Below, in pieces: positions 13,554-15,832 of a stretch of 26,875 nt of DNA. The stretch is from Corallococcus sp. 4LFB (lineage in GTDB: Bacteria > Myxococcota > Myxococcia > Myxococcales > Myxococcaceae): contig NZ_JBKGHJ010000051.1 of the NCBI RefSeq assembly GCF_046520365.1, forward strand, positions 1 through 26,875, written 5' to 3'. The notes below the pieces were generated by a model. The model ran no database searches, was not told the DNA's origin, and was given only the letters and a program-made list of their open reading frames with translations. Within the stretch, counting starts at the first letter, position 1; every line of letters begins with the position of its first letter. The translations under genes and the position numbers were made by a program.

Positions 13554-15832
13554 GTGCCGTCCGCCCCCAGCACCGAAGCCATCCAGCGCATCTCCCTGAA
13601 GAACCGCGAGTACGCCTACATCGAGGACGCCAACCGCGGCGTCGTGCTGATGGAGGTGGGCCCGCGCGTGCTGACGCTGGAGGCGCACCTGACGCTCGTG
13701 GCGAAGGAGCGGATGGTGGAGGTGGGCGCCGGCAGCTGGTGCGTGGTGCGCAACCCCGTGGTGCGCGTGGACGGGCAGGTGGCGCTGGACGACTTCGGCC
13801 AGGCCCGCGTCGCGGTGGGCGACCGCGAGGTCCGCGTGGGCCCGAAGGTGTTCCCGCTGTACCCCGGCGAGGAGCTGGAGGGCGACATCGTCCCGGAGTA
13901 CGTCCTGGGCGTGTCGGAGGCGCTGCGGCTGCGCGCGCTCACCGCCTTCATGGACACCAGCGCCCCGGACGCGCCCGCCGCCGCGAGGCCGGTGACGAGT
14001 GGCTGGTGCGCGGCCCCGGCCGCTACGTGCCAGGCGAGGCCGTCACCGTCGTGTCGCTGGAGAAGGCTCGCGTCCTCAAGGAGACCGAGTACTGCGTCAT
14101 CCTCAATCCCGTGGACCGCGCCACCGGCCGCGTCCAGGAGGGCCGCCGCAAGGTCGTCTCCGGGCCGGACGTCTTCTTCCTGGAGCCCGGCGAAGCGCTG
14201 GAAGGGGACGTGCGCCGCAAGCACGTCCTGTCGGAGCTCCAGGGGCTGAAGCTCCAGGCGCTGGATGACCTCTCCGAGAACGAGGGCGGCGAGCCCCGCG
14301 CGCGCAAGGCCGGTGACACGTGGATCGTCCGCGGCCCGCGCACCTACGTGCCCAGCGAGAAGGTCCTCATCCACCGGGAGATCTCCGCGCTGTCGCTGGG
14401 GCAGGGGGAGGGCCTCTACGTGCGCGATTTGCGCTCGGGCAAGGTGTCGCTCGTCCAGGGGCCGTGCCAGTTCATGCCGGAGGCGCACCAGGAGCTGCAC
14501 GAGAAGCGCCTGTCCCCGGACGCGGAGGCGCTGCTGGGCCTTGCTTCGCCGCTGCCGGCTTCGGCGGACGCGAAGGACGTCCGCGCGCCGCGCCCCGCGA
14601 CCCAGGCGGAGAAGGGGGACCGCACGCGCGCCATCGTGCTGCGCATCGAGGACAACACGGCGGTCCTCATCAACGACTTCGAGACCAACCACGCGCGCGT
14701 GGAGTTCGGCCCCGCGAAGGTGATGCTGCGTCCGTACGAGGACGTCACCGTGTTGGACCTGTCCGGCAGCACGCCCAAGCGCCCGCGCCAGCTCAAGGTG
14801 TTGATGCTGCGGCTGGGGCCGGACTTCGCCACGGACCTCTTCGAGGTGGCCACGCGCGACCACGCGCGGCTGCGCATCAAGCTCTCCTACAAGTGGCAGT
14901 TCGACGTGCAGGGCGACCCGGAGAAGGACAAGGCCATCTTCCGGGTGAACGACTTCATCGGGTACGTGTGTGAGAACCTCGCGTCGCGCATCCGCCAGGT
15001 CGCCGCGGAGAACGAGTTCGAGACCTTCCACAAGAACGCCAGCGTGCTCATCCGCCGCGCCATCTTCGGCATGGACGACGCGGGCCGCGCGCGCAAGGAC
15101 CGCCTCTTCTCCGAGAACCAGCTGCGCATCATCGACATCGACATCAAGGACATCGCCCCCGTCGACGAGAAGACGGCCCTGAAGCTGCGCGAGGCCATCG
15201 ACACCAACATCCAGATCCAACTGGACGCCTCACGCCAGGAGGCCCAGGCCGCCGCGGAGCTCAAGCGCATCCGCAGCGAGGAGGAGAAGCAGCTCGCGGA
15301 CATCGCCAGCCACCGCAAGTCGGAAGCCGAACGCCAATCCCTCATCGAACTGCAGAATCGCAATCACCAGCTGGAGACGCTCAGCCGCGCCAAGGTGGAG
15401 GCGGAGGCGCAGCTGGAGCGGGCCCGCGTGGAGAGCGAGGAGGCCCTGGCCCGCGCCGAGTCCGACGCCCGCGCCTCCCGCATCCGCGCCGAGGCGGAGG
15501 CCGAGCGTGAACGGCTCACCACCCAGGTGACGCTGGAGCGCCAGCAGCGCCTCAACGACCTGGAGGTGGAGCGCCAGTCCCGGCTCGCGGAGGTGGAGGC
15601 CTCGCAGTTCCGCCAGCGCGTGGAGTCCCTGGGCGGCGGGGAGAACTTCGTGAAGGCCGTGGCCGCGCAGGCCCAGGCCGCAGTCGTCGGAGGCCTGGAC
15701 AAGGTCGTCTTCCTGCCCAGCGGCTCCAACCTCAACCTCTTCGACGCCATGCAGGGGCTCCTGGGCCCCGGAGGCCAGCCGCGCCTGTCCGCCCACCACA
15801 CCCCGACACCGCCCGGAGACACCTCCGCCTGA
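13554..15832 (+). CDS. Major vault protein (MVP) homologue of about 760 aa. It is interrupted by a single-base frameshift near 13975–13990: 13554–13986 reads in one frame and 13987–15832 in the frame of the ORF 13469..15832.
   Basis: Direct residue-level similarity to vertebrate MVP runs along the whole length. MVP repeat domains: ISLKNREYAYIEDANRGVVLMEVGP…, then …[20 protein letters not shown]… (compare human FPLYPGEVLEKDITPLQVV), then [15 protein letters not shown] (human AGDEWLFEGPGTYIP). Further matches include EYCVILNPV…FFLEPGEALEG…, …AGDTWIVRGPRTYVPSEKV…, and GEGLYVRDLRSGKVSLVQGP (human EGIYVQDVKTGKVRAV). The shoulder domain reads [37 protein letters not shown] (human [36 protein letters not shown]). 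A long coiled-coil cap helix follows. The C-terminal cap-ring motif is [20 protein letters not shown] (human [22 protein letters not shown]). Confidence 0.75.

Follow-up and report, generated by a model that had tools for sequence, protein, structure and literature searches.

A full-architecture major vault protein gene with a one-base frame break in Corallococcus sp. 4LFB

Bacterial relatives of the eukaryotic major vault protein (MVP) have been in the literature since 2013, when Corallococcus coralloides H8MNI3 was listed among bacterial proteins whose predicted folding and docking resemble those of MVP (Daly et al. 2013; PMC3762200). A later preprint covered MVPs of Myxococcales, Cytophagales and Oscillatoriales and noted a link with gliding bacteria (Sokolskyi 2019; bioRxiv 10.1101/872010), another placed the C. 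coralloides and Melittangium MVPs on a tree (Santos et al. 2023), and in JGI and UniProt such proteins already go by the name 'major vault protein'. The searchable literature yielded no experiments on a bacterial MVP. The gene considered here occupies positions 13554-15832 of the forward strand in a 26,875-nucleotide stretch of the Corallococcus sp. 4LFB genome (contig NZ_JBKGHJ010000051.1), referred to below as the window. The gene is a full-architecture MVP homologue, and we give a probability of about 0.85 to the overall reading of it as the Corallococcus orthologue of the bacterial family already described. The family, its Corallococcus copy included, has been known since 2013, so the novelty implied by a first-pass annotation of the window does not hold: the Corallococcus orthologue was named a putative MVP in that year, and the 2019 and 2023 preprints deal with MVPs of Myxococcales. 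The public annotation is uneven. NCBI names the myxobacterial members 'hypothetical protein' and those of cyanobacteria 'colicin uptake protein'; NCBIfam lacks a model for MVP and gives no match for the orthologue examined here, although Pfam recognises all the domains.

The MVP-like protein is encoded jointly by two overlapping open reading frames (ORFs), and the features of the gene are as follows.

13554..14249, forward strand: ORF 1 of the MVP gene, frame 0
13469..15832, forward strand: ORF 2 of the MVP gene, frame 2, overlapping ORF 1
13554..13976, forward strand, frame 0: MVP codons 1-141, with a GTG start; repeats R1 and R2 (the latter corresponding to Vault_2) and the start of R3
13974..13976, forward strand: frameshift site, a CCC run that is CCCC in most Corallococcus orthologues
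13976..15832 (codons to 15829), forward strand, frame 2: MVP codons 142-759 and the stop codon
14816..15166, forward strand: shoulder (SPFH-like) domain, residues 422-538, Pfam MVP_shoulder
15167..15628, forward strand: cap-helix, residues 539-692, about 154 amino acids, with DSSP helices at 539-579 and 588-692 in an AlphaFold2 model; aligns to the rat cap-helix
15629..15772, forward strand: cap-ring region, residues 693-740, aligned to rat SSPINLFSTAFGLLGLG

Both ORFs belong to the MVP family by profile search. The frame-0 product matches Pfam Vault_2 (E=3e-23, residues 54-112), while the frame-2 product matches MVP_shoulder (3.6e-45), Vault (1.3e-21), Vault_3 (5e-20) and Vault_4 (1.7e-6) and carries a Vault_2 match as well. 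All five Pfam MVP models exceed their curated cut-offs, and Vault, Vault_2, Vault_3 and Vault_4 are found both in the window ORFs and in P0001, the 759-amino-acid MVP of Corallococcus exercitus AB043A (locus L001), which is 98% identical to the window protein. This strain is the nearest relative found for the window (~95% nucleotide identity). The joined translation matches rat and human MVP with E=1e-140 (phmmer, PDB sequences), and residues 8-743 of the repaired protein align with rat residues ~5-857 (chain 2qzv_A 17-869), from the N-terminus to the cap-ring. Identity is 96-98% to the proteins of C. exercitus, C. coralloides and C. aberystwythensis (755-759 amino acids) and 85-88% to those of Archangium, Vitiosangium, Hyalangium and Melittangium. 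The first-pass annotation, made from the letters of the window alone, had proposed a near full-length MVP homologue at this position. Its identification stands, since the Vault and MVP_shoulder models were matched above their cut-offs, the phmmer search agreed, all the motifs it quoted are present and aligned, and R1-R2, the shoulder, the cap-helix and the cap-ring were all recovered by alignment. What it merely hinted at, by speaking of a 'repaired ORF', is that the gene as given in the window is unable to make the full protein because of a frameshift of 1 nucleotide (nt).

Codons 1-141 match P0001 residues 1-141 at 98% identity (tblastn), and codons 142-759, which hold the rest of R3, four further repeats, the shoulder, the cap-helix and the cap-ring, match P0001 at the same level. 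The repeats run in the order R1, Vault_2, Vault, Vault_2, Vault, Vault_4, Vault_3. On P0001, Pfam finds Vault twice, Vault_2 twice, Vault_4, Vault_3 and the shoulder; the total of seven repeats adds R1, for which there is no Pfam model and which aligns to rat R1. This count agrees with the initial estimate of a protein shorter than human MVP, with 6-7 repeats instead of 9. A Nostoc homologue has nine repeats, with four Vault matches against two in P0001, and rat residues ~173-213 have no counterpart in the window MVP in the alignment to PDB sequences. Two repeats of the R3-R5 block are thus missing. The shoulder domain (PF11978) follows directly after the last repeat and its profile is covered fully (1-118 of 118, E=3.6e-45); shortly before it comes a basic 'keyhole loop', TPKRPRQLK (residues 407-415). 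In the cap-ring, residues N728 and L729 do not vary among 80 bacterial homologues. The MVP has no signal peptide or transmembrane segment, its maximum Kyte-Doolittle value over 19 residues being 1.33, and should therefore be cytoplasmic and soluble. The gene is a stand-alone, vertically inherited chromosomal one that normally specifies a 759-amino-acid cytoplasmic protein. No PADLOC defence family matches P0001.

An AlphaFold2 monomer model was made for P0001 with an 80-sequence alignment, and had a mean predicted local distance difference test score (pLDDT) of 74. Seven beta-rich units make up the model as far as residue ~401; then come an alpha/beta shoulder (411-536), two long helices (539-579 and 588-692) and, towards the C-terminus, short helices at 696-712 and 729-736. 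When the model was compared with the PDB using Foldseek, the top matches were MVP structures only (rabbit 9Z4W, human 9BW5 and rat 4V60; E=1e-46 to 1e-37), followed by the SPFH cages HflK/C, flotillin, erlin and prohibitin (1e-5 to 1e-3). A structure prediction set against the vault structures had been suggested at the outset, and MVP folds rank first in it. Global template modelling (TM) scores against vault chains were low (0.26-0.41); the model lacks two repeats and does not show the long multidomain chain in the shape that it would have in an assembled particle. The fold was judged on Foldseek E-values and probabilities and on sequence alignment in place of TM-scores.

Several sites of known importance in eukaryotic MVP can be followed into the window protein, whose R1 aligns to rat MVP from residue 8. 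The waist contacts are partly conserved: human R9, D20 and N22 are identical (R12, D25 and N27) and D39 is conservatively replaced by E43, but N40 and R42 are not kept. Thirteen residues line the pocket for nicotinamide adenine dinucleotide (NAD+) or adenosine diphosphate (ADP) in human MVP (PMC12280208). Six of these are identical (human K506, R507, P508, D521, F522 and W545 correspond to K409, R410, P411, D424, F425 and W448), H509 is replaced by R412 with its basic character kept, and one falls in an unalignable loop. Adenine nucleotides may bind at this partly conserved basic shoulder pocket. Human PARP4 docks via its MINT domain on R3-R5 of MVP, at Q164, R169 and D214. Because the two missing repeats come from this block, myxobacterial MVP would be expected to have no PARP4 docking site, and the repeat loss fits the absence of a PARP4 partner.

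Among 15 orthologous loci that were compared, most Corallococcus copies read GAC GCG CCC CGC CGC CGC at the frame break, where the window has GAC GCG CC-C GCC GCC; one C has thus been lost from a run of four. DNA alignment to C. exercitus AB043A places a single uncompensated indel inside the gene; insertion of one C gives an uninterrupted 759-codon ORF, and no other disabling change is present. Read as it stands in the window, the gene would give an R1-R2 fragment only. The gene is nevertheless under strong purifying selection: the ratio of non-synonymous to synonymous substitution rates (dN/dS) of the repaired gene against two intact orthologues is 0.066 and 0.09, compared with 0.056 between intact orthologues, and is similar on both sides of the break. 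Such intact-like values imply either normal selection until very recently or a break that does not exist in the strain. Of the two explanations, an assembly error in the homopolymer and a very recent inactivation, the former is slightly favoured.

If the missing base is a sequencing or assembly artefact (a homopolymer under-call), the strain has an intact, functional 759-amino-acid MVP gene, and we put the odds of this a little above even. The change is a C4 to C3 contraction within a homopolymer, dN/dS is indistinguishable from that of intact-orthologue pairs, and one inserted base is enough to restore the ORF, with nothing else disabling it. A second apparent 1-nt deletion splits another gene in the same 27-kb window:

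22896..24322, reverse strand: RPE65-family (carotenoid oxygenase) gene, split, with the junction at ~23130-23145

Here ORF 23129..24322 covers positions 13-390 of the Pfam RPE65 profile and ORF 22896..23132 covers 398-469 in a different frame. Two one-base breaks in 27 kb are expected of an unpolished long-read assembly. Speaking against an artefact, every further indel over the 11.7 kb of alignment with C. exercitus is intergenic, compensated or in-frame, and MVP genes are known to decay in related species. A further candidate frameshift, at ~10650, was rejected, as the C. exercitus annotation has two overlapping genes there (an RdgC-like gene and an unknown gene).

The other serious reading, to which we give rather less than even odds, is that the frameshift is real and the gene a freshly inactivated pseudogene, one more case of recurrent loss in Corallococcus. 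Gene integrity was assessed in 25 related myxobacterial loci, 21 of which are intact. In C. sicarius (L025 10001-11036) only MVP residues 413-755 remain, with a further frameshift; C. llansteffanensis (L079 5659-6543) has lost residues 178-620 by an in-frame deletion; and frameshifts at other positions occur in a strain of C. carmarthensis (P0050) and in a metagenome-assembled genome (P0051/L024). The MVP family was also not found in Myxococcus genomes in a species-level scan that used one genome per GTDB species (104 stretches with relatives, 79 loci kept). An inactivation would have to be very recent, however, as there is no relaxed selection, and the second frameshift in the window suggests an error-prone sequence.

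What an intact protein would form can be proposed by analogy with the eukaryotic vault. Because all the eukaryotic cage modules are retained, the cap-helix is of equal length and the protein is unusually conserved, an intact MVP of the window type would most likely self-assemble into a vault-like shell; these points support vault assembly but do not prove it. Intact myxobacterial MVP subunits would associate side by side, like those of eukaryotic MVP, into a closed or half barrel held together by the cap-helix bundle and the R1 waist, giving a shell shorter than the eukaryotic vault by two repeats per half. We offer only tentatively, as somewhat less probable than not, the fuller proposal that the seven-repeat MVP makes a shortened cytoplasmic cage which has no TEP1, PARP4 or vault RNA and sequesters adenine nucleotides in the shoulder pocket.

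Several points weigh against an intact, cage-forming MVP in this strain. The window protein has seven repeats only, the waist residues N40 and R42 are not conserved (A44 and L46), and five pocket residues differ (R504 to T, R511 to L, L517 to R, P565 to N and K573 to E). No cargo or partner gene was found, no neighbour within 6 kb being conserved beyond Corallococcus in the 79 loci. The 11.7 kb aligned to C. exercitus holds no other frame-breaking indel. Repeated loss of the gene within the genus indicates that it is dispensable in Corallococcus, and the decayed copies make a real pseudogene plausible here.

It is unlikely that the MVP-like sequence makes no closed vault at all, but a ring, half-dome or scaffold like those of SPFH proteins (HflK/C, flotillin) or of a TolA-like 'colicin uptake protein'. 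The shoulder and helix do resemble SPFH cages (Foldseek E=1e-5 to 1e-3), the protein is two repeats shorter, N40 and R42 of the waist are not conserved, and eukaryotic vaults are reported to associate with membranes (PMC13100048). Against these stand the lack of both a transmembrane anchor and a signal peptide, the retention and high conservation of R1-R2, cap-helix length and cap-ring, and the restriction of the TolA similarity to the coiled coil. A vault-like shell remains the preferred assembly.

Programmed ribosomal frameshifting or phase variation at the C run is very improbable. The break does fall in a short homopolymer, but an X XXY YYZ slippery heptamer is absent, three or four Cs make too short a run for efficient slippage, 21 of the 25 myxobacterial loci keep one reading frame, and the other disrupted copies break at different positions.

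The gene is native to its chromosome. Overall GC of the window is ~70% with a very strong third-position bias, and GC at third codon positions (GC3) of the MVP gene, 0.99 in the frame-0 part (codons 1-141) and 0.95 in the frame-2 part, is like that of the neighbouring genes. The first-pass figure of about 70% for GC3 is thus wrong, being the overall GC where GC3 is 95-99%; its view that the gene is no contaminant is upheld by the GC3 match to the neighbours and by synteny, MVP lying at the same chromosomal position in 13 Corallococcus species. Other matches in the GTDB-species scan were in Archangium, Hyalangium, Vitiosangium, many filamentous cyanobacteria, some Anaerolineae and one Thiomargarita, and an exhaustive HMMER search gave 207 clusters (50% identity) at E<=1e-30. 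In a neighbour-joining tree the myxobacterial-type MVPs form a clade apart from cyanobacteria and eukaryotes. They are 34% identical to MVPs of a sponge and of Anaeramoeba and 39-41% to those of cyanobacteria, whereas cyanobacterial MVPs are 50-52% identical to eukaryotic MVP. The separate clade agrees with published trees, so that the phylogenetic test proposed initially excludes both contamination and a recent eukaryote-to-bacterium transfer. Eukaryotic contamination or recent transfer from a eukaryote, which has nothing in its favour beyond the eukaryotic fame of the family, is rejected as next to impossible, given bacterial genes on both flanks in the same contig, GC3 of 95-99% like the neighbours, synteny in 13 Corallococcus species, only 34% identity to eukaryotic MVP and a separate clade position.

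The immediate neighbourhood of the gene contains the following features.

11349..13150, reverse strand: low-GC island (~62% against 70% GC; GC3 0.6-0.8)
13051..13086: strong terminator-like hairpin, 3' of the Cys-rich peptide gene
13095..13313, reverse strand: small secreted Cys-rich peptide gene, 72 amino acids, six cysteines, divergent from MVP
15925..17571, reverse strand: aromatic amino-acid hydroxylase, long form, 548 amino acids, convergent with MVP

Gene calls confirm the flanks first described, a divergent Cys-rich peptide gene and a convergent phenylalanine-hydroxylase gene. The hydroxylase matches NCBIfam NF010657 (E=4e-191) and has a large C-terminal extension beyond the biopterin-hydroxylase core. 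The peptide, MKPSRLKRS...CSASCKPCYSQYDCGDGEGSCGVWRCINP, belongs to no assigned family; three other Corallococcus loci encode it with every cysteine conserved (78-90% identity). The low-GC island encodes a DUF6310 protein, which has a lipoprotein-type signal, MTMSLRTCTALWLLLVFSAC, and probably starts at 13036, and then a DUF5953 protein; the two might form a toxin/immunity module. The island is shared by both C. exercitus strains and by C. interemptor, has diverged in C. carmarthensis and is missing from Corallococcus sp. RDP092CA, which identifies the stretch immediately upstream of MVP as a hot spot for insertions. On the other side, C. exercitus AB043A (L001 12325-15172) has two additional genes between MVP and the hydroxylase, encoding a 344-amino-acid protein without known function and a protein with LysM and a C-terminal domain like that of the type VI secretion protein VgrG3, where the window has 92 nt (15833-15924); the locus is therefore variable on both flanks of MVP. 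These and the other nearby genes of the window are ordinary chromosomal ones; the others encode S9 and S13 peptidases, an RdgC-like protein, and LysR, SDR and M1 aminopeptidase proteins. A promoter scan found no sigma-70 promoter in 13000-16000, and terminator-like matches inside the MVP gene are no more than chance would give, unlike the hairpin that follows the small peptide gene.

None of the genes of the window encodes TEP1 (TROVE/NACHT/WD40) or PARP4, and when the whole window was scanned with Rfam at the gathering thresholds no RNA family was matched, hence neither a vault RNA nor a Y RNA candidate. Within the window, then, the earlier statement that no TEP1 or vPARP partner is present is correct, and vault RNA is likewise absent. 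When all ORFs within 6 kb of MVP in the 79 loci were clustered, no neighbour common to the cyanobacterial loci was found, and with no neighbour conserved beyond the genus, a co-encoded cargo or partner was no longer considered.

The function of vaults is a decades-old question, and bacterial MVPs could offer a simple, partner-free system in which to study it, an opportunity that has already been raised for exactly this family and genus. A partner-free cage, if it exists, would be a true prokaryotic vault organelle and a genetically tractable route to vault function; this idea too is already in print, though the searchable literature contains no test of it. To this the window adds little: a copy broken by one base, the dispensability of the gene in Corallococcus, the lack of a conserved genomic partner, and a myxobacterial MVP short of two repeats in R3-R5, the block on which human PARP4 docks.

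Compared with known systems, encapsulins and bacterial microcompartments resemble the window MVP only in its proposed role as a self-assembling cytoplasmic shell; their folds are unrelated and they have co-encoded cargo that bears targeting peptides, whereas MVP has no conserved neighbour. SPFH cages (HflK/C, flotillin, prohibitin, erlin and stomatin) come closer, as their SPFH domain and coiled-coil cap match the shoulder and long helix of the window MVP (Foldseek 2.5e-5 to 1e-3) and they too build closed domes from side-by-side subunits. They are, however, membrane-anchored, lack an N-terminal beta-repeat barrel and are only 12-18% identical, while the window MVP has no hydrophobic segment and carries ~400 amino acids of vault repeats before its SPFH-like domain. 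The MVPs of cyanobacteria, Anaerolineae and Thiomargarita are, like that of the window, bacterial stand-alone genes of full architecture and are 38-41% identical to it; they differ in having nine repeats and 850-900 amino acids, and are often annotated 'colicin uptake protein'. The cyanobacterial type is 50-52% identical to eukaryotic MVPs and clusters with them, whereas the myxobacterial type is a separate clade. Eukaryotic MVP (rat 4V60/4HL8, human 9BW5 and rabbit 9Z4W) has the same domain order and a cap-helix of ~154 amino acids at 32-34% identity, and shares the waist residues R9 and N22, the PKRP keyhole loop and the pocket residues D, F and W. The eukaryotic vault has nine repeats, including the residues on which the PARP4 MINT domain docks, against seven in the window MVP, where that block is short of two; it also has TEP1, PARP4 and vault RNA, none of which is found in the window, whose host is a bacterium. 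The closest counterparts are the myxobacterial MVPs of C. coralloides (H8MNI3) and Melittangium boletus, which are the same orthologous gene, the sole difference being the 1-nt deletion in the window.

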